A stretch of DNA of 26,188 bases, taken from the IMG/VR virus record IMGVR_UViG_2049941000_000092, one strand, 5' to 3'. Under the pieces are notes generated by a model. It did not search any database. It had not been told where the DNA came from and saw nothing but the letters and a program-made list of their open reading frames with translations. This document shows, in pieces, positions 2,302-25,092 of this stretch; within the stretch, counting starts at the first letter, position 1, and every line of letters begins with the position of its first letter. Position numbers and translations under genes: made by a program. Origin of the DNA: an uncultured virus (IMG/VR IMGVR_UViG_2049941000_000092). Lineage: Duplodnaviria > Heunggongvirae > Uroviricota > Caudoviricetes.

Positions 2302-2819
2302 TTACTCCTTATTAATACATTTTATAATATAATCAATAAGTGCCTTAGTACCTCCTACGATAAGTCTGTAGATTAAATACATAATTCCACATGGAACTTC
2401 AAGAGGCCATAGAATTATAAGAAGAAAGTNNNNNNNNNNAAATCATCAAGACATGTTATGACATCAATTCCAGTTTTATACTTTGCATACGCATACTTTT
2501 CAGCAGCTTCAGCATCACTAGTATCTCCTCTATTTTCAAGAAATGAATACATAGCTCTGTACGCACNNNNNNNNNNNNNNNNNNNNNNNNNNNNNNNNNN
2601 NNNNNNNNNNNNNNNNNNNNNNNNNNNNNNNNNNNNNNNNNNNNNNNNNNNNNNNNNNNNNNNNNNNNNNNNNNNNNNNNNNNNNNNNNNNNNNNNNNNN
2701 NNNNNNNNNNNNNNNNNNNNNNNNNNNNNNNNNNNCGCAATACATTGATACGTATAGAATGATATTGCACCAATGAAAATATACGCTAAAATACTGAGAA
2801 AAATCCAAAGAAAAAGCAT
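2302..2819 (-). CDS. Membrane protein(s), gap-interrupted; may be more than one gene
   Basis: Hydrophobic N-terminus MLFLWIFLSILAYIFIGAISF and C-terminal LLIILWPLEVPCGIMYLIY...INKE*. Confidence 0.45.
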
Positions 2820-5092: not shown

Positions 5093-6190
5093 CTAGATTA
5101 TCTTGTTCGGATCGAAAATCTCATCATCGATATCGGTTCTCATACCAATATAATCACAAATGCTATCTTGTTCTGCGACACACACTTCTAACTTGTAAAG
5201 TTGTGTTTCAAGTATATCATAAAGATCTGCCGGATATACAGCTTTAAGTATCTGAAAGATGTTTAATCTTTCATTACCCGAAACATCGTGTGTTTCAGCA
5301 TAGACAAGAATTGCATTAAATACATACATCCAAGTTAGAATCTTTTCAAGATTATAAGAAGGACGTAGTAAGCGAAATTCTACGGTCTTATTGACTCGAT
5401 AACAGATAAGATTTAGTAGATTCACCCAATAATAACGCTGGGGAATATTCCATTTGCGAGCCCGATCAATATCCAATGGATGAGGTTGCTGTAAGCTACC
5501 AAAGAACCGAAGTCCGGTAAAACCTGCATAGAAATCCTCAAAGCGAGTATATGGACTGCCGAGAGCATTACAATAGTCTTTTCCCGAACTCTTATACTGC
5601 GATGTTCTGAAAGTATATTTCGGAACAAGTGCAGCAATGGAACGTTGTACTATACAACAAAGATTAAAAAGCGATAAAATTCGCTTAGGCTCTAATGGAA
5701 AACCGCCGAAATGAATATGAAGTGAACATTCTTTATCAAAACGAGTATATTTACGAAGTGTTTCCAATTGTTGGTAAAGCAGGTTAAAACCTTTATGCCC
5801 CTGTAAAACTACAGTGGAATATTCATTACCGCTAATGGAGCCATCTCGTAGAGGAATCAACCCATCCGCGAAACATATTTCCTCTGGAATGATTCCATTG
5901 GAAGTTTCAAATTCCAAACCGAAACTGTACTTGATAAAATTCTCAATAGGGAATTCAAAATCATAACGTACTTTCTGTCGATCTTTGAATGTTTCCAGAT
6001 TGTTTACNNNNNNNNNNGGTACGCTGAACATTTGTGGCGAGCCGTGCCATAAAAATGTGCACACCTTTACTGGCGTAGTAGTATAACCAAAAATAAAACA
6101 GTCATCAATTTTGTTGACAACAACACTGTGTGCATCACTTACATATATACGTTCACCAGTTACGCAATCGATTGTAGATATACTTGCCAT
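5093..6190 (-). CDS. Putative amidoligase (glutamine-synthetase-like COOH-NH2 ligase), copy 1
   Basis: FGLEFE, DGSI..EY, CSLHIH, RYYWVNL and KTVEFR motifs. Confidence 0.85.
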   Translation of the reverse strand: MASISTIDCVTGERIYVSDAHSVVVNKIDDCFIFGYTTTPVKVCTFLWHGSPQMFSVXXXXVNNLETFKDRQKVRYDFEFPIENFIKYSFGLEFETSNGIIPEEICFADGLIPLRDGSISGNEYSTVVLQGHKGFNLLYQQLETLRKYTRFDKECSLHIHFGGFPLEPKRILSLFNLCCIVQRSIAALVPKYTFRTSQYKSSGKDYCNALGSPYTRFEDFYAGFTGLRFFGSLQQPHPLDIDRARKWNIPQRYYWVNLLNLICYRVNKTVEFRLLRPSYNLEKILTWMYVFNAILVYAETHDVSGNERLNIFQILKAVYPADLYDILETQLYKLEVCVAEQDSICDYIGMRTDIDDEIFDPNKII

Positions 6191-7662
6191 AATGCGTCAT
6201 AATCAGTATTATCTTCGACATTAAATAATGCATCAAACTGTTTACTGGCATCGCCTCCAATAACTCCAGTTTTTCTTCTCACGAATTGTCCATTAGCATA
6301 GATATCAATGCTTGCTTGGAATAAAACCTGTCGATCGCCAGTGAAATTCTCCCATTTGAAAGGTTCTATGGCGTGTAACAAGTGATTATCTTCGAAATAA
6401 ACTGGATCTGCACTCAAATACCGAATGAAATTTTCGTTTTTGGAGAAGAATGGTTCCCAAGAATTAGGACTCTCCGTAAACATTCTTGTTACAAAGTCCC
6501 ACGCATTCTTACTTTTCATTGGAATACCATGATAGAACCAAACTTCCCTAATGGTAACATACTCGGAATTTTTCTCCTTAGGATCAGTAACGACCCTACC
6601 ATAGCCGGTCATACGATAGCCACCGCTCATCGGCCTGGCGTTGTATTCGAAAATATTCTTTCCAGGAAGATGTCTAACATATGCACTTCCCTGAGTATAA
6701 CCAGTTCCTACACTCTGATTAGGGGTTGCAACTTCATCGTCATCCCAGTAACGATTTTCAGATGGAACACCATAGTTATAGCCATAACCATAACTGGTAA
6801 CTGCACATCTTGCCTGAGTTGCCTTAGATCTATCGATTTCCTTTATCATATAGAGCTTGGAATCACGATACTCAATGATTTCATTGGCGGGGAGAATGTA
6901 ATAACGTCCTCCGTCAAGAATTGGAATATAAGAATGAACGGAACTGAAAACCAGCCTTCCATTCTTATAATTCAAAAACAGCGGACGTTCTTCTTCAGCC
7001 GCAGCACTAGTACTGTATTTCTTACTTTCGCCTCGGTATAGGAAAACTCTTGGTCTTCCACTTCTATAATCGACTGCAACAAATGCTGCACCACCCTGAT
7101 ATTCCTTTAATACGTCATATCCGGTATGATACAGTATTTGTGCAAGANNNNNNNNNNNNNNNNNNNNNNNNNNNNNNNNNNNNNNNNNNNNNNNNNNNNN
7201 NNNNNNNNNNNNNNNNNNNNNNNNNNNNNNNNNNNNNNNNNNNNNNNNNNNNNNNNNNNNNNNNTGCGAATCGGACATTCCGAAAACGTTTGTGTTTGGA
7301 ATATATTTCTTCGCAAGTTCTTCATAATTATAAATTGTGCCGTTATGAATAAGTACGAACTTTGTTTCCTCATTCTCCTTGATTATAACGGGCTGCGCTT
7401 TTTCGAGGCTAACTCCACCAGAAGACGCTTTTCTGTCGTGTCCGATGGCAATCTTACACCGTTTCGTTTGACGCAGCAGCTTGCTGCCAGGATAAAATGC
7501 TTCGAACAGAGCCGTTTTTGTAATACCATATTCTACGTTTCCATCGATGAAAATTCCGCATGAATCTCCACCACGTTTGTCATTTGCAACACCTAATACA
7601 CAAAACGTTTTATAGTCAAACGGTGCGTATTCTGTATTAATTATACCCCAAATTCCACACAT
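6160..7662 (-). CDS. Class II (Ntn) glutamine amidotransferase with C-terminal extension, copy 1
   Basis: N-terminal MCGIWG, RGGDSCG, GHDRKAS, HNGTI, SDS. Confidence 0.9.
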   Translation of the reverse strand: MCGIWGIINTEYAPFDYKTFCVLGVANDKRGGDSCGIFIDGNVEYGITKTALFEAFYPGSKLLRQTKRCKIAIGHDRKASSGGVSLEKAQPVIIKENEETKFVLIHNGTIYNYEELAKKYIPNTNVFGMSDSXXXXXXXXXXXXXXXXXXXXXXXXXXXXXXXXXXXXXXXXLAQILYHTGYDVLKEYQGGAAFVAVDYRSGRPRVFLYRGESKKYSTSAAAEEERPLFLNYKNGRLVFSSVHSYIPILDGGRYYILPANEIIEYRDSKLYMIKEIDRSKATQARCAVTSYGYGYNYGVPSENRYWDDDEVATPNQSVGTGYTQGSAYVRHLPGKNIFEYNARPMSGGYRMTGYGRVVTDPKEKNSEYVTIREVWFYHGIPMKSKNAWDFVTRMFTESPNSWEPFFSKNENFIRYLSADPVYFEDNHLLHAIEPFKWENFTGDRQVLFQASIDIYANGQFVRRKTGVIGGDASKQFDALFNVEDNTDYDALWQVYLQSIA

Positions 7663-7665
7663 AAT

Positions 7666-8463
7666 TTACATTATCAGATATTTTTTGATGAGTGTCCTAG
7701 CCAGTTGCTCATCACTATTATTGATGGCCTTGACAACAAGACCAGAATCAGCAAGTGGAGCACCCGTGTTACACGCATCAATAGCGTTCATTAATTGATC
7801 CCAAACGAGACCCATCAATTCGTCATTGGCGTACATTGCTGAGGACAGACAACGGTACTCTAAGCCATATGGCGTCAGCCGGAATGCACCAGCTTTACCA
7901 TATAAGCTACGACGGCGTGTGTCTTTATCGTAGAGAATAGACGGCAGTCCAAGGAACATGTCCATATAACGAATCATTTTCAGAGACGTATCGACATTGT
8001 TGCGGGCATACCCGAGATGGATATGGAAACCGCTGGATCTACCATTTGTTTGTGTGCCCTTAGGCGCAGGATTTTCGGATTCCGTATAAACGTTATAATC
8101 CGGCATACAGCCGAACAATTTTGCCTGATCACTTTGCAGTTGATCAGCGTCAACGACTTCATATGCGGAACACTTAATTCCATAGTCTGGATTAATCTTC
8201 TTAACAAATGCATCAATGTACCGTTTCATGTAATTGATACTGTTAATGAAATCCAGTCGTGATCTCACCGGAGGAATATTGAACTCGGCGAGAATATTGT
8301 CGGTTTCCAACCCGAACCCGTCTGGCATGTCGTCAGCTACATAAGGATTTCCTTTTTCACCAGGAATAAGTCCTACAGAAGATACAACTTTGCCAGTTTT
8401 CGTATTGATGATAAAGAGTTCGGGATCGGAACCAACAGTGATGTTATCGACAAGTATTCTCAT
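7666..8463 (-). CDS. Phage phiEco32-like COOH-NH2 ligase type 2
   Basis: GSDPELF, DNILAEFNIPP, FGCMPDYN, GFHIHLG, RRSLYGKAGAFR, YGLEYR. Confidence 0.9.
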   Translation of the reverse strand: MRILVDNITVGSDPELFIINTKTGKVVSSVGLIPGEKGNPYVADDMPDGFGLETDNILAEFNIPPVRSRLDFINSINYMKRYIDAFVKKINPDYGIKCSAYEVVDADQLQSDQAKLFGCMPDYNVYTESENPAPKGTQTNGRSSGFHIHLGYARNNVDTSLKMIRYMDMFLGLPSILYDKDTRRRSLYGKAGAFRLTPYGLEYRCLSSAMYANDELMGLVWDQLMNAIDACNTGAPLADSGLVVKAINNSDEQLARTLIKKYLIM

Positions 8464-9088
8464 TTATTAGTTCTGCTAAAACTCTAAGTGGATAATTGAG
8501 AAGTTCCTCTTCGTAAACTGTAGGAAGAAATTGGACGGCAATACATTTCGGCTTTTCAGGATTATCATAGACAACAATCTCGGGATTTCCCTTATTATAG
8601 TTGAGATGATAATCGATCTCACCGTTTCTCTCACTATAATATTTGATGTTAGTAGAGTATGCAATAACCCTGTGCTTAGTATACCACGGATACAGTGCTT
8701 GGTGATGTCTTTGAATCTTCGGATAAACAAAAATGCCATCCTTAGTTTCTACAAACAAATCGTGTGAAATGTTCGAAGCATCACGCCATCTGCATTCCTG
8801 AATTAATTTTCCTCCGTTCATCACAGTAAGAAACTGTGCACCTCTGCCAAATCCAATTACCAATTTATCCTTTGGAATATTGTTAAATNNNNNNNNNNCC
8901 ATGTCTGATATGTCACGGCTACCATCATACATTGTGGTAGGTTCGCAACGAGCACCATATAACATGGGATTAACGTCAGGTCCATCAGTAAATATGATAA
9001 CATCGGCAGTGTCCATCTTTTTTACGAGAGTGGCATCAGGAAGAAAGTTCGTATAATTCTTCCCACCTTTTACAACGAAAACATTCAT
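8444..9088 (-). CDS. Class I GATase (peptidase C26-like) paralog lacking catalytic Cys and His
   Basis: FTDGPDVNPMLYG, GFGRGAQFL, HHQ, QFLP. Confidence 0.8.
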   Translation of the reverse strand: MNVFVVKGGKNYTNFLPDATLVKKMDTADVIIFTDGPDVNPMLYGARCEPTTMYDGSRDISDMXXXXFNNIPKDKLVIGFGRGAQFLTVMNGGKLIQECRWRDASNISHDLFVETKDGIFVYPKIQRHHQALYPWYTKHRVIAYSTNIKYYSERNGEIDYHLNYNKGNPEIVVYDNPEKPKCIAVQFLPTVYEEELLNYPLRVLAELINENTCR

Positions 9089-9820
9089 TTATCGTGCTTT
9101 TAGTATGCGATAATTGTTAATATACTGAGGAAGATGCTTTTCGAAAAGTGCGTTTTCCGTAATATACTCAGTTTTATAATCTGGAACTTGATGTACTTTC
9201 AGATTATAGTACTTAGTATAGTCAGGATATAGTTGTCGTGCGTAAGTAATATGTTCTATTCGCTTACGCATTTGATCTATAGTTAAGAACTTACGGCAAA
9301 TTCCAAATACATGATCTCTATCACCTTCAGATTCATAACAAGATGCAACTGCCATAAACAGATTCTGAATATTATCGAATCTAAATTTAGGCAGATGTTG
9401 CATCTTATATGCTTGTGCGAGATAGTAATTCTGAGGAAATTCGTATAATTTCTTAATGCTTTGCACAATAATCGTCGTAACGGCACGAGTTGCCATTATA
9501 TCAAGATGGACGATATAACAAGGATGATTATAATACGATCCGTTTCGTACATTATACTTAAACGGATAAATCTTTGTTAATTGGTGCAAATAGCTAGAAA
9601 CCTGAACTCTAGATAAAAAGCACTGATTGTTATGACGTGCAGTTAGAGGTTGATATGAATCCGTACAAAGTTTTATGGAGATATCAGAATGATACTTTTT
9701 AGATCGATTGGTCANNNNNNNNNNAGCATCACACATAATTCTACCATTTACCCAAATATTTCTACCATCCAGTGTACCACCGAAAACAGTGCAATAATTG
9801 AGAAATCTACTGTACTGCAT
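9089..9820 (-). CDS. Hypothetical protein X (free-standing paralog of the intron-encoded ORF)
   Basis: ORF track; overlaps GATase exon 2 stop; motif-by-motif similarity to 10253..10832. Confidence 0.8.
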   Translation of the reverse strand: MQYSRFLNYCTVFGGTLDGRNIWVNGRIMCDAXXXXTNRSKKYHSDISIKLCTDSYQPLTARHNNQCFLSRVQVSSYLHQLTKIYPFKYNVRNGSYYNHPCYIVHLDIMATRAVTTIIVQSIKKLYEFPQNYYLAQAYKMQHLPKFRFDNIQNLFMAVASCYESEGDRDHVFGICRKFLTIDQMRKRIEHITYARQLYPDYTKYYNLKVHQVPDYKTEYITENALFEKHLPQYINNYRILKAR

Positions 9821-11242
9821 ATTTCAAAATCAGGTCGTTTAACATATCGTGCAATTCGCCATAGTTCATCATCTCAGGATGACCCTGTACACCAAGGCAT
9901 ACAGGCAATCCTTCTTTATGAAAAACAGCTATTTCTGGTTCACGAATAATACGCTCAGGATTAATTTTGTCTCCGTGATAATAAGAACAACGCTTTATGG
10001 TAGACCAATATAGAATATCATAATCACGTTTGTTCAAATTAAACGGATAAATCATTTGATGATGAAGAGAAGTAATTGTAAAGGTTTCTCTGCCGTTAGT
10101 AATTCCATGATTACATCCAGCATGATTATCACAATCTTGAACAAGCAAACCACCATTCAGTACACATAGGAATTGTACATTTTGTTATCGTAGGGGCTCT
10201 TTATCCTCTACTTCTGAACATTCAATTCTGCCCAGTTCGGACTATCTCTTCATTAAAACTTAGTACCTTTTAGAATCTTATAATTTTTGACATATTTCTC
10301 AACACGTTTGTCAAAAGTTTCCAGNNNNNNNNNNNNNNNNNNNNNNNNNNNNNNNNNNNNNNNNNNNNNNNNNNNNNNNNNNNNNNNNNNTAGCGTACTT
10401 CTTTAGACGAAACGCTTCTAGAAGAATCATATTGTACGGAAACTCATAAGCATATCTTAACCAAGTTAAGAGATACCTATGATAGAAATGATTGGCGTCA
10501 ACGTCAAACGTAACTTTAAACGCTGGACACACTCCAACCCCACTACGTACTTCCGGCTCTTCTTCAACATTATAGTTAAATTTGAATATTCTTCTAGCTT
10601 GTTTAATATGATAGATTAATTCTTCTTTTGTTAAAGGACAGAAATTACTCTGATGTTTTTTTGCAACTTTCAGATCCTTAAAAAGATAGATTATATAAGA
10701 TTCTTTTCTGATCGTTTTTCGATTAATAGCGTTTGCAAAACACGCATGTGATCCAAGAGGAACATGAATATCGCCATTTGCTTCGAAATACGAGCAGTAG
10801 CTCATAAAGTTTAGTTTAATTTCATTAGCCATAAAGATCTATGATTTTAATGTGGGGTACTCGTGGAAACATTATCAACTCAAAGAGTCTCAGTTTCTAG
10901 TCTCTGAACTTTCAAGGACATCACTGCCCAAGCTTAGCTGCTGATTAACATCTCAGTCTTCCAGCAATTCACCCCATTTAACGTGAGCTACGACGTTAAC
11001 CCACGACATGTACCAAATGCCAACTGATCGGGTCTCATCTTTCGGAAAGCGAGAACTTCCTGCTCGTCTCTCCTTGGACTACTATAGACAGTTGGGTCTT
11101 TAGCACAACCATATAAGGAGGGGCTTACATCAGCCCCTCCTGTGAATAATACGATTTGTGCGTCTTCTATGTTGTGAACAAACTCGACGTCTTTGATCCA
11201 GTTAGCATAATCCCAACTTGGACCAACCACATAAATCTTCAT
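9807..11242 (-). CDS. Class I glutamine amidotransferase / gamma-glutamyl hydrolase (C26-like), spliced: exon 1 11242-10999, exon 2 10177-9807, 204 aa
   Basis: Joining restores GTCRG-L-QFLCVLNGG; FTGGADVSPSLYG, HHQM and QGHPE complete the Cys-His-Glu triad. Confidence 0.9.
10178..10998 (-). mobile_element. Group I intron (IA-like, extra P7 insert) in the class I GATase
   Basis: P1 exon CGTGGGT/IGS GCTCACG with U.G; P GAATTGCTGGAA, Q AATCAGCAGC, R GTTCAGAGACTA, S AAGAGATAGTCC; P3 TGGGGT/ACCCCA; P8 CATTAAAAT/GTTTTAATG; terminal G at 10178. Confidence 0.92.
10253..10832 (-). CDS. Intron P8-encoded protein, paralog of 9089..9820, no recognisable endonuclease motif
   Basis: ORF track N-terminal part; post-gap frame LETFDKRVEKYVKNYKILKGTKF* with its stop inside the P8 3' strand. 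Confidence 0.8.
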
Positions 11243-11288: not shown

Positions 11289-12365
11289 TTATTCAGCAGA
11301 TTCAGGGGTTTCGACGGGAGCAACAGCCGGTGCAGCTGCAGGAGCAGCAGCCGGAGCAGCGGCGACAGGGGCGGCGAGACCTCCGAAGAGGTTACCGAAG
11401 GCGTTCTGGCCGCTGAGGGCGGAGTACATGAGAAGGTCCTTGATGTCGAACTTGTCGCCACCAGCGAGGGCCATCATCATCATCGGATTGGCCTGAAGGG
11501 CACCGCCGTTCTGGGACAGCAGCATCAGGGGAAGCAGGCTGTCGTTGTCCTTCTTGTCGGAGAGGGCAAGAAGCATCAGCGGATTCATCTGGCCGCCGAG
11601 GTTACCAGCGAGGGAAACCACGACACGGACAGTGGTCTGGCCGAGGAAGAAGTCCTTGATCGGATACACGTTGGAACCAGCACCGGTATAACCAACGACA
11701 GTGATGCGACCTTCCTTGATGGCCTTCACCTTCGCGTAGCTCTTCTCACGGGCGATGATATCGCCAACCTTCAGCTGCTCGACAGGCTTCGGAATGGTGT
11801 AAGCCGGGAGGTTGATCACCATCTCGTCCGGATAGGACGTGAGGTGGAAGTTCTCGTCGATGGTTACGTAACCGTTAGAGGTTGCAACACAAATGTTACC
11901 GTCCATAGCAATACGGACATCCTTTGCCTCGGTGGGGATCAGGTTGGCTTTGAGGCGCTCGCCAAAATTCTTGATGGAGTTCATACTCGTTGTTTTAGGG
12001 GTTGAGGCAGATTCGGAATTGAGAAGGGGCCGAGCCTCACGGCACCACGTCTCAAATTTGATACGATTGGCGACGCTCGTGATGTTAACTTTCTTAACAT
12101 CGTAGTTACGAGCGAGATCGTCGATGTAAGCGCGGTCTTCACCGGACAGGTCCTCAATGGACTTATCGAAGGTCCGGATAACGAAGATGCTATTTCCCTT
12201 CTTAGTGATGAGGTTGTCACCAGCCTTCACAGAAGCGAGATAGTCGTTAAGACCACATTCAGCGATGCGGAACTTGCAATTCTTTTTCGCGAATGCAACA
12301 ACGTCCGCAAGAGTCTTCGGAGTAAATCCGAGATTCGAAGTGTAAACAATTAATTTGTTACCCAT
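11289..12365 (-). CDS. Hypothetical phage protein with Met-rich NPLMLLAL-type repeats and an Ala/Pro tail
   Basis: 358-aa ORF with strongly C-ending codons, unlike its neighbours. Confidence 0.85.
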   Translation of the reverse strand: MGNKLIVYTSNLGFTPKTLADVVAFAKKNCKFRIAECGLNDYLASVKAGDNLITKKGNSIFVIRTFDKSIEDLSGEDRAYIDDLARNYDVKKVNITSVANRIKFETWCREARPLLNSESASTPKTTSMNSIKNFGERLKANLIPTEAKDVRIAMDGNICVATSNGYVTIDENFHLTSYPDEMVINLPAYTIPKPVEQLKVGDIIAREKSYAKVKAIKEGRITVVGYTGAGSNVYPIKDFFLGQTTVRVVVSLAGNLGGQMNPLMLLALSDKKDNDSLLPLMLLSQNGGALQANPMMMMALAGGDKFDIKDLLMYSALSGQNAFGNLFGGLAAPVAAAPAAAPAAAPAVAPVETPESAE

Positions 12366-13235: not shown

Positions 13236-13426
13236 ATGTATAAGGCGATTTTTTATCTCTGGAATAAGCTATATAATATAGCTTTTNNNNNNNNNNNNNN
13301 NNNNNNNNNNNNNNNNNNNNNNNNNNNNNNNNNNNNNNNNNNNNNNNNNNNNNNNNNNNNNNNNNNNNNNNNNNNNNNNNNNNNNNNNNNNNNNNCTTAA
13401 ATATTCTTCCATATAAACAGGTTTTG

Positions 13427-24462: not shown

Positions 24463-25092
24463 TAGCCCGGGCGGGAATCGAACCCGCACGACCTTTCAGG
24501 TCAGGGGATTTTTGTACCACTATAGTTTTCACTANNNNNNNNNNAACATGGCTGTAGAATCTCACTACAGAACTAAGACTCCCATCATTTCTGACTGTCT
24601 TCGTTTTATATAAACTACCCATACTTGTATTTATTTGTGGTCTGGACTCTATCTTAACCATATTGAAATCTTGCAAGATGCATATCTGCTTGAACCGAAG
24701 TAACCGCAAATATACAATTCCAACTTAGGTTCCTCCTGTAATAGTCTCTACACACTGTCTAACAATCAATATACTCGCAGTAACATTGTTAATATCCTTG
24801 TCAGGGATAAATTGTCAGTGACATTGGCTCGGTATCGGCATATTGTAATGTGAGACTTCCCTTGGTTCTCACCCCCATATACTGATGCTCTGTAATCTGA
24901 GCTATACATAATACAACTTTAGCTTTCACCGAATTAGGGAGGTTCTACATCTCAGGTTATCCCTGAGTGCACTCAAATTTTTCATTAAGCAGTGATATGC
25001 GTCTCACGACGAATATCACCATAATCAATGTCTAGTGATTATTATGAAAAAATTATTTAAGTCCCCAGTGTCTACCATTTCACCACCAGGCC
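24463..25092 (-). tRNA. tRNA-Leu(UAA), intron-containing: exon 1 25092-25059, exon 2 24512-24463
   Basis: Splicing restores GGGGA-CTTAAAA-TCCCC, variable arm GACC-TGAAA-GGTC, T arm GCGGG-TTCGATT-CCCGC. Confidence 0.88.
24513..25058 (-). mobile_element. Group I intron (IC3-like) in the tRNA-Leu(UAA) anticodon, no convincing ORF
   Basis: P1 ACTT|AAAT...ATTTGAGT with U.G; P2 CTCAGG/CCTGAG; P AATTCGGTGAAA; Q ATACCGAGCC; R GTAGAGACTA; P3 CCTCC/GGAGG; S AAGATAGAGTCC; P9.0 ACCAC/GTGGT. Confidence 0.88.

Follow-up and report, generated by a model that had tools for sequence, protein, structure and literature searches.

The interrupted amidotransferase gene and its intron

The DNA described here is a stretch of 26,188 nt from an uncultured virus of the Caudoviricetes (IMG/VR record IMGVR_UViG_2049941000_000092). 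The whole of this stretch is referred to as the window, and coordinates are window positions unless they carry the name of another locus. It contains a cassette of amidoligase genes that includes GAT1a, a class-I glutamine amidotransferase (GATase) gene interrupted by a group I intron, and the genes around GAT1a are all on the minus strand. It is very probable that this intron, which sits in the sole intact class-I GATase gene of the cassette, carries in its P8 loop a gene of the same operon in sense orientation, here called X, and not an endonuclease. The nearest virus record, G001 (177,170 bp, rated complete), shares 100% of the sampled words of the window, and the locus L002 in this record was used for the unmasked coordinates of the intron and its open reading frame (ORF).

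The first exon of GAT1a (10999..11242, minus strand) consists of 81 codons and one further nucleotide, ends in ...FGTCRG plus T (...TGT CGT GGG T) and matches Pfam Peptidase_C26 (E 4.3e-5) and phrog_7218 (E 3.1e-9). The intron is inserted one base past the Cys-Arg-Gly codons of the nucleophile motif, and the unspliced frame of exon 1 runs for three codons into it (LTS) and then meets a stop. Exon 2 (9807..10177, minus strand) starts TA CAA TTC, contains the His/Glu motif in the form GVQGHPEMM and is also matched by phrog_7218 (E 3.5e-13). Once spliced, GAT1a reads C-R-G-L-Q-F-L-C-V-L-N-G-G, which restores the GxCRGxQ motif of uninterrupted homologues.

The intron itself (10178..10998, minus strand) extends from the U of UAACG to a terminal G and measures 821 nt in the window and 1024 nt in G001 (L002:1314..2337). 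Its internal guide sequence GCUCACG (10982..10988, minus strand) pairs with the exon sequence CGUGGGU (11005..10999) to give a 7-bp P1 in which a U.G pair marks the 5' splice site; the 3' splice site is the terminal G at 10178 (10178..10178, minus strand), the ligated joint having the ends TA..TG. The 5' strand of P3, UGGGGU (10971..10976, minus strand), has its partner ACCCCA at 10858..10853, while the 5' strand of P7, GACUA (10898..10902, minus strand), lies within the conserved sequence GUUCAGAGACUA and pairs across the ORF with UAGUC at 10244..10240. The 9-bp P8 is formed by CAUUAAAAU (10844..10852, minus strand) and GUUUUAAUG (10251..10259, minus strand), the latter being followed by J8/7 (AAGAGA) and the 3' strand of P7 (UAGUC). 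Between P7 and P3' the RNA forms extra helices as a P7.1/P7.2-type insert, which we take to be typical of subgroup IA.

The ORF within the intron, X_intron (10253..10832, minus strand; 260 aa when unmasked), fills the P8 loop of 787 nt, and its stop codon UAA is held in the 3' strand of P8. A preliminary description of the window, made from the sequence alone, had placed a complete ribozyme core here with its P8 enclosing this ORF; its coordinates were all correct, and core and enclosure both stand. The ORF is masked in part, with 66 N at 10325-10390 standing for 269 nt and preserving neither length nor frame. The N runs elsewhere in the window (9715..9724, about 7150..7270 and about 13290..13400) do not preserve length either, and frames across them are untrustworthy; the 10 N at 9715..9724, which fall in the free-standing X gene, amount to five more residues in G001.

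Sister introns and the exon junction in RNA libraries

Homologous inserts are found at the same site in six other contigs (L016, L067, L068, L074, L075 and L077) and in a cut contig, L073. The cores of the seven same-site introns, the one in the window included, align throughout, and in each the position for cargo is the P8 loop. Over these seven, P1 is paired in 48 of 49 cells with two positions changed on both sides, and where the Arg codon of the exon differs by a synonymous change the guide sequence has changed with it (CGU/ACG as against CGA/UCG). P3 is paired in all 42 cells although four of its six positions vary, double changes among them, P7.1 is paired in 35/35 cells, and one extra P7 pair covaries between G-C and A-U across the loop of 726-787 nt; the pairing of P8 was judged from each sequence singly. 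The core predicted in the preliminary description therefore covaries with its six sisters. When the Rfam group I model RF00028, which has a gathering score of 50, was applied to the intron in the window it aligned the P3-P7 half with 36.4 bits (E 1.8e-7), the score remaining under the gathering score because the model is unable to bridge the 787-nt ORF. The Rfam scan of the sister introns was made on L075 alone, an intron of 262 nt with no ORF and a P8 loop of 7 nt, which reached 67.6 bits (E 2.9e-16).

The five ORF-bearing sisters have in P8 an ORF of 241-244 aa on the opposite strand (L016:4716..5447, L067:4045..4770, L068:4574..5299, L074:4571..5296 and L077:5267..6001). The three of these that were scanned match phrog_3322 'endonuclease' (E 1.3e-27, 1.8e-29 and 7.7e-28) together with PHROGs for HNH endonucleases and endonuclease VII, while Pfam gave sub-threshold helix-turn-helix matches only. 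The intron in the window thus shares with its sisters the site, a homologous core and the P8 loop as the place of cargo, but its cargo is a sense copy of the operon gene X, whereas theirs is an antisense HNH/EndoVII-like endonuclease or nothing. The 3' end of the sister endonuclease gene runs antisense through the 5' strand of P8, P3' and the P7.1/P7.2 region, so that the same bases are constrained both by a protein and by the ribozyme core; in the window the P7.1/P7.2 region is shorter than in the sisters and no antisense ORF overlaps it. At the 3' end, three sisters (L068:5480..5492, L074:5480..5491 and L075:2488..2499) have an A where the window has the terminal G (...AAAUA, followed by C), and use of a G upstream (..ACG, followed by AUAA..) would keep the frame but add five residues (Y-N-I/K-N-T) inside the nucleophile motif.

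Evidence for splicing comes from RNA. Three studies contribute ten RNA libraries, with the label bovine gut metagenome, in which parts of the locus occur; four of the libraries were mapped on L002:900-3500. Contigs of two of them (runs X1 and X2, from one study) carry a joint from 1313 to 2338 that skips exactly 1024 nt with the ends TA..TG, and hence the junction that had been predicted, GGG T joined to TA CAA. Contigs that cover both unspliced junctions are likewise present, and there is no exon-exon joint among the contigs of runs X3 and X4. A spliced joint together with unspliced borders in independent assemblies is what splicing predicts, and it confirms the nesting as well.

Introns are a recurrent feature of the genes and phages around this one. 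The P4-P5 sequence of the intron recurs exactly in five introns (L042-L046; match 2501..2537, minus strand) that interrupt family-A DNA polymerase genes on phage contigs of 50-104 kb, so that this ribozyme lineage has moved between genes and between phage groups; adjoining ORFs there show, by eye, LAGLIDADG-like motifs. The COOH-NH2 ligase gene, uninterrupted in the window, is split in relatives after residue 118 and/or 145 by inserts of 207 to about 1130 nt (L029:6451..7583, L031:6427..7494, L030, L032, L034, L048, L050 and L051). The long ones encode LAGLIDADG proteins, those of L029 and L031 matching PF14528 with E 9.4e-12 and 2.2e-9. With endonuclease introns in both its GAT1 and its ligase genes, the operon is a regular target of introns, and what is exceptional in the window is the cargo. 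Elsewhere in the window (24463..25092, minus strand; L005:1432..2084) a tRNA-Leu(UAA)-like gene, directly after tRNA-Glu and tRNA-Ser, is apparently split in the anticodon loop. Its 5' half runs from GGCCUGG to GGGGACUUAAA and its 3' half consists of the variable arm, T arm and acceptor; the insert of ~570 nt scores 36.1 bits as an Rfam group I intron, below the gathering score, and ARAGORN makes no call of the gene.

The X family and its place in the amidoligase cassette

The cargo has a free-standing paralogue, X_free (9089..9820, minus strand; 248 aa in G001), directly downstream of GAT1a. The two proteins align with a BLASTP E of 2e-7 on the masked part and of 5e-12 at full length, with 22% identity from end to end, so the similarity first recognised by eye is significant. 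Neither has a meaningful match in Pfam, PHROG, NCBIfam or PADLOC, and the same profile libraries do detect the endonucleases of the sister introns. A word-indexed protein search gave two or three relatives for each copy; an exhaustive search with a profile hidden Markov model (HMM) showed that the family is large: 484 cluster representatives pass E<=1e-3 and 328 pass 1e-10, with lengths almost always between 230 and 290 aa. X_intron matches positions 2-247 of the family HMM with E 3.4e-93 and lacks none of the residues that are invariant or near-invariant across 123 aligned members, the near-invariant ones being C31, F32, N63, C65, L122, R126, Y129, E130, P132, R244 and Y248. In these 123 members no Pfam family was matched by more than one member, and a profile search of PDB sequences returned nothing significant.

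An AlphaFold2 model of X from a 123-row alignment is confident (predicted local distance difference test, pLDDT, 91.5; predicted template modelling score, pTM, 0.90), an earlier model from five sequences having been dropped for its pLDDT of 55. Foldseek with the confident model gave 0 matches in PDB at E<=1e-3. In BFVD it matches two proteins each of the crAss-like phages cr108_1 and ctelJ1 (E 4e-11 to 1e-7; template modelling score, TM, 0.63-0.72). The phage GenBank collection yielded no DNA match, and neither X_free nor X_intron matched anything in it by tblastn; the ESM Atlas gave no usable match. An extension of the family to phiEco32-like phages by way of GAP52 is not supported: the two hypothetical genes before its ligase miss the X HMM, and its match in BFVD is weak, with a TM of 0.40.

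Downstream of X_free the cassette continues with GAT1b (8444..9088, minus strand), a second class-I GATase-like gene without the Cys/His/Glu triad (GFGRGAQ and VQFLPT at the two motifs). It is followed by a phiEco32-like COOH-NH2 ligase type 2 (7666..8463, minus strand; PF14395 E 1.1e-11, phrog_3815 E 8.1e-65) and by GAT2, a protein with a class-II (Ntn-type) glutamine amidotransferase domain (6160..7662, minus strand; GATase_6 E 2.1e-10, GATase_7 E 4.3e-7). GAT1 proteins resemble gamma-glutamyl hydrolases (Peptidase_C26), and a weak NCBIfam row names gamma-glutamyl-CDP-amidate hydrolase at E 1e-5, far below the cut-off of that model.

The same order recurs in relatives without the intron, as the comparison suggested in the preliminary description brought out. 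In viral loci found with X, by a search that used an 11-row X alignment, the genes for X, GAT1, the COOH-NH2 ligase and GAT2 follow one another on one strand in six of six cases. In viral loci found with the ligase X stands directly before GAT1 in 22/27, the other five being L019, a degraded operon with a truncated GAT1, and four distant ligases (33-36% identity), some of them at contig ends. GAT1 comes right after X in 30 of the 31 X-seeded metagenome loci, the contig ending at that point in the remaining one, and X is inside GAT1 in none. Among 65 tabulated loci, in which some contigs are listed twice, only L002 reads GAT1-X-GAT1, and X_intron, lying within GAT1a, thus departs from the free-standing position directly upstream of GAT1 that is typical of its family. 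The crassviral cr108_1 (Crassvirales) is annotated with an ATP-grasp protein, two hypothetical proteins, a GATase, a COOH-NH2 ligase and a GATase-II, in that order, and the X profile recognises each of the two hypothetical proteins, with E 3.9e-18 and 1.1e-20 (TM in BFVD about 0.69). By gene order and profile matches, X is a core member of a widespread phage cassette X-GAT1-ligase-GAT2.

Pairs of X and GAT1 have been duplicated as units in L034, L048 and L051, with fragments of such arrays in L047, L050 and L052-L054, and the stop of X and the start of GAT1 abut or overlap. This joint duplication and close spacing make it most likely that X and GAT1 serve the amidoligase pathway jointly; that the two proteins are physical partners is a more tentative proposal, to which we give somewhat less than an even chance. 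Upstream of the cassette, an ATP-grasp (RimK-like) gene precedes it in the relatives L003 (64..3196) and L078 (1694..2452), and further upstream ORFs of L003 resemble, by eye, nicotinate phosphoribosyltransferase, NUDIX and NAD synthetase proteins. The gene upstream of GAT1a in the window (11289..12365; 347 aa, with an Ala/Pro-rich C-terminus) is shared with L048.

Origin, rival readings and significance of the nested gene

Of 30 aligned GAT1 proteins, 29 retain the Cys in GxCRGxQ as well as the His and Glu in QGHPE; the exception is GAT1b of the window, whereas GAT1a has both motifs. X_free and its relatives have K and H/Q in place of the near-invariant R126 and R244. With the triad lost from GAT1b and X_free diverged, the phage has no intact class-I GATase and no canonical X besides the nested pair. 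GAT1b and X_free are likely to be a pseudoenzyme pair, the frame of GAT1b still being open. In a quick maximum-likelihood tree of 53 X sequences X_intron forms a clade (approximate likelihood-ratio test, aLRT, 91) with X genes that lie between the two GAT1s of duplicated arrays, and X_free, a member of a diverged subclade, has P0002/P0003 as its closest partners (aLRT 99), the second X of L054 joining them at the next node (aLRT 96). On the contigs L053 and L054 an X gene (45-47% identical to X_intron) is followed by an uninterrupted GAT1 and a second X gene, that of L054 falling in the X_free clade and that of L053 being a fragment without placement in the tree. Their GAT1, at 58% identity, is closer to spliced GAT1a than any other, and their gene order is that of the window with X outside GAT1.

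These relationships point to an ancestor with the order X - GAT1a - X_free - GAT1b - ligase - GAT2, from which X would have moved from its place directly upstream of GAT1a into the P8 loop, the endonuclease gene being lost or replaced. An octamer, ATGAAGAT, occurs at the start of GAT1a, and the J8/7 of the sister introns, AUGAAGAU, holds this octamer, where the J8/7 of the window reads AUGAAGAG; this identity of 7-8 nt between the GAT1 start and J8/7, a weak match noted after the fact, may mark the right-hand recombination joint.

Three other readings of the locus have to be weighed. One takes the nesting for an artefact of assembly or masking, as might be thought from the N run that sits within the window ORF and from the frame shift across it. 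In the unmasked record, however, X_intron is a single open frame of 260 aa (L002:1480..2262) with both intron halves flanking it, so what the gap masks is 269 nt of an intact ORF, and the nesting is not its product, just as the preliminary description had it. Independent RNA-library contigs, moreover, span exon 1, intron and the start of X (L002:1286-1772) as well as the end of X, intron and exon 2 (1969-2364), and an identical X_intron protein is on record from two contigs. An artefact of this kind we regard as extremely unlikely. According to another reading the intron is a decaying insertion that no longer splices, GAT1a is a pseudogene and the junction was contributed by DNA or RNA of an intron-less relative. 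The intron does lack an endonuclease and does score below the Rfam gathering score, a second GAT1 gene is present, and the junction comes from a single study in which carry-over of DNA may have occurred. Decay would nevertheless have to leave all core helices paired, with compensatory changes relative to the sisters, and the U.G and terminal G both in place; it would also have spared the catalytic motifs in both exons of GAT1a when those of GAT1b were lost, and an intact X ORF with every family-conserved residue, and the joint skips precisely the 1024 nt that were predicted. We think it very unlikely on these grounds.

The third reading, already raised as an alternative in the preliminary description, is that X is itself a new family of homing endonucleases or maturases, the intron copy being selfish cargo and the operon copies free-standing homing-endonuclease genes beside their target. 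X occupies the very loop in which the sister introns hold an endonuclease, and a paralogue directly downstream of the target gene is what free-standing endonuclease genes look like. X is also frequently duplicated or in tandem, it diverges faster (22-47% identity) than GAT1 and the ligase (50-65%), and its fold, which matches nothing solved, could be that of a nuclease. Against this, profiles found in X none of the motifs or domains LAGLIDADG, GIY-YIG, HNH, His-Cys box, PD-(D/E)XK or EDxHD, the 123 members show no nuclease motif or family, and the near-invariant residues form no nuclease motif that we recognise. The sporadic, insertion-like distribution expected of homing endonucleases is not seen either: X abuts GAT1 at one fixed position and strand in the 22/27 and 30/31 loci, nearly all of them without a GAT1 intron, and it is found in the distant cr108_1 as well. 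A maturase role, for its part, is ill-suited to operons that have no intron. This alternative is accordingly disfavoured and seems improbable, if a little less so than decay of the intron.

Several points weigh against the preferred interpretation, that of a splicing intron with an operon gene as its cargo. The Rfam score of the window's own intron is below the gathering score, and the junction, seen in one study only, could have its source in an intron-less variant whose DNA was present in those samples. Self-splicing is a prediction from the core, its covariation and the RNA junction, and translation of X from the intron, which the interpretation would entail, is presumed. The loci found with X are biased towards finding it, and the unbiased ligase-seeded set includes 5/27 without it. 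The X tree is a quick one in which the clade of X_intron, with its aLRT of 91, is not starred, and L053 and L054 are short contigs of 1.4-1.8 kb.

If a splicing intron with X as cargo is nonetheless accepted, the operon transcript would run through the intron, and the ribozyme would excise itself and ligate the exons precisely, with the frame of GAT1a restored. The message for X would be either the precursor or the intron after its excision, and a ribosome at the end of X would melt P8 and lie over J8/7-P7, with the result that translation and folding may compete. Since X_intron is in the canonical clade and X_free and GAT1b have diverged, precise loss of the intron would cost the phage its only canonical X, and the intron would be protected by its cargo. 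Clade membership and the dead GAT1b thus suggest that the cargo is needed by its host and that the intron is retained for this reason. A stronger version, in which X is an obligate partner of the GATase encoded by its host gene and the nested layout has been selected for (through ratio, intron retention or homing in trans), is in our judgement doubtful. If it were true, each splicing event would yield one GAT1a mRNA and one X-bearing intron RNA in a fixed ratio, and the intron could not be lost without loss of the only canonical X. In mixed infections the X-bearing intron could, moreover, be copied into intron-less GAT1 alleles by an HNH-type endonuclease acting in trans, since the sister introns, some of which encode such an enzyme, use the same homing site; the ribozyme would then move a metabolic gene between phages.

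To our knowledge, the ORFs of phage introns are treated as homing endonucleases. The introns of T4 td, nrdB and sunY, of SPO1 and of Twort likewise lie in phage enzyme genes at a conserved catalytic motif, with the ORF looped out from a peripheral helix. Their ORFs and those of Delta/Zeta crAss-like phages are endonucleases, whereas the cargo in the window is X. According to Yutin et al. 2021 (PMC7886860), the intron-dense crAss-like phages (Delta/Zeta) have genomes of 145-192 kb with many tRNAs, and their introns were located through endonuclease domains, a route by which an intron with other cargo would be missed. The phage studied here appears to belong to this group, going by the genome of 177 kb, the 12 tRNAs in the window, the introns, and cr108_1 as the nearest named relative of its ligase.

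Two organellar cases share with the window a group I intron that holds, looped out at its periphery, host-genome genes other than endonucleases. The mitochondrial ND5-717 intron of hexacorals and corallimorphs has, according to Chi et al. 2019 (PMC6545197), functional genes in P8, much as X is embedded here. The ND5-717 intron is organellar, however, encloses several genes, at the extreme almost the entire genome, and is back-spliced in corallimorphs, whereas the intron in the window is viral and holds one gene, drawn from the very operon that hosts the intron. The fungal mitochondrial rnl mL2449 (U11) intron encodes rps3, which is free-standing or intronic depending on the lineage, and rps3 has been suggested to secure retention of the intron (PMC5626475). 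There the host is an organellar rRNA gene and the cargo a ribosomal protein; here the host is a protein-coding gene of a phage and the free-standing paralogue of the cargo lies next door. Word searches of the literature, which were not exhaustive, found no report of a phage intron with an operon gene other than an endonuclease as its cargo.

The locus would offer a viral group I intron whose endonuclease has given way to a working gene of the operon, and cargo of this kind is known otherwise only from organelles. It would parallel the ND5-717 and mL2449 rps3 cases, which have served in the argument that an intron can be fixed in position by what it carries. X itself stands out as an uncharacterised core member of the cassette: its family runs to 484 cluster representatives, and its model is confident but has no relative of solved structure. 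Endonuclease-bearing sisters, an ORF-less sister, relatives in which the genes are not nested and a junction in RNA together would make the shift of an intron from parasite to fixture directly testable.

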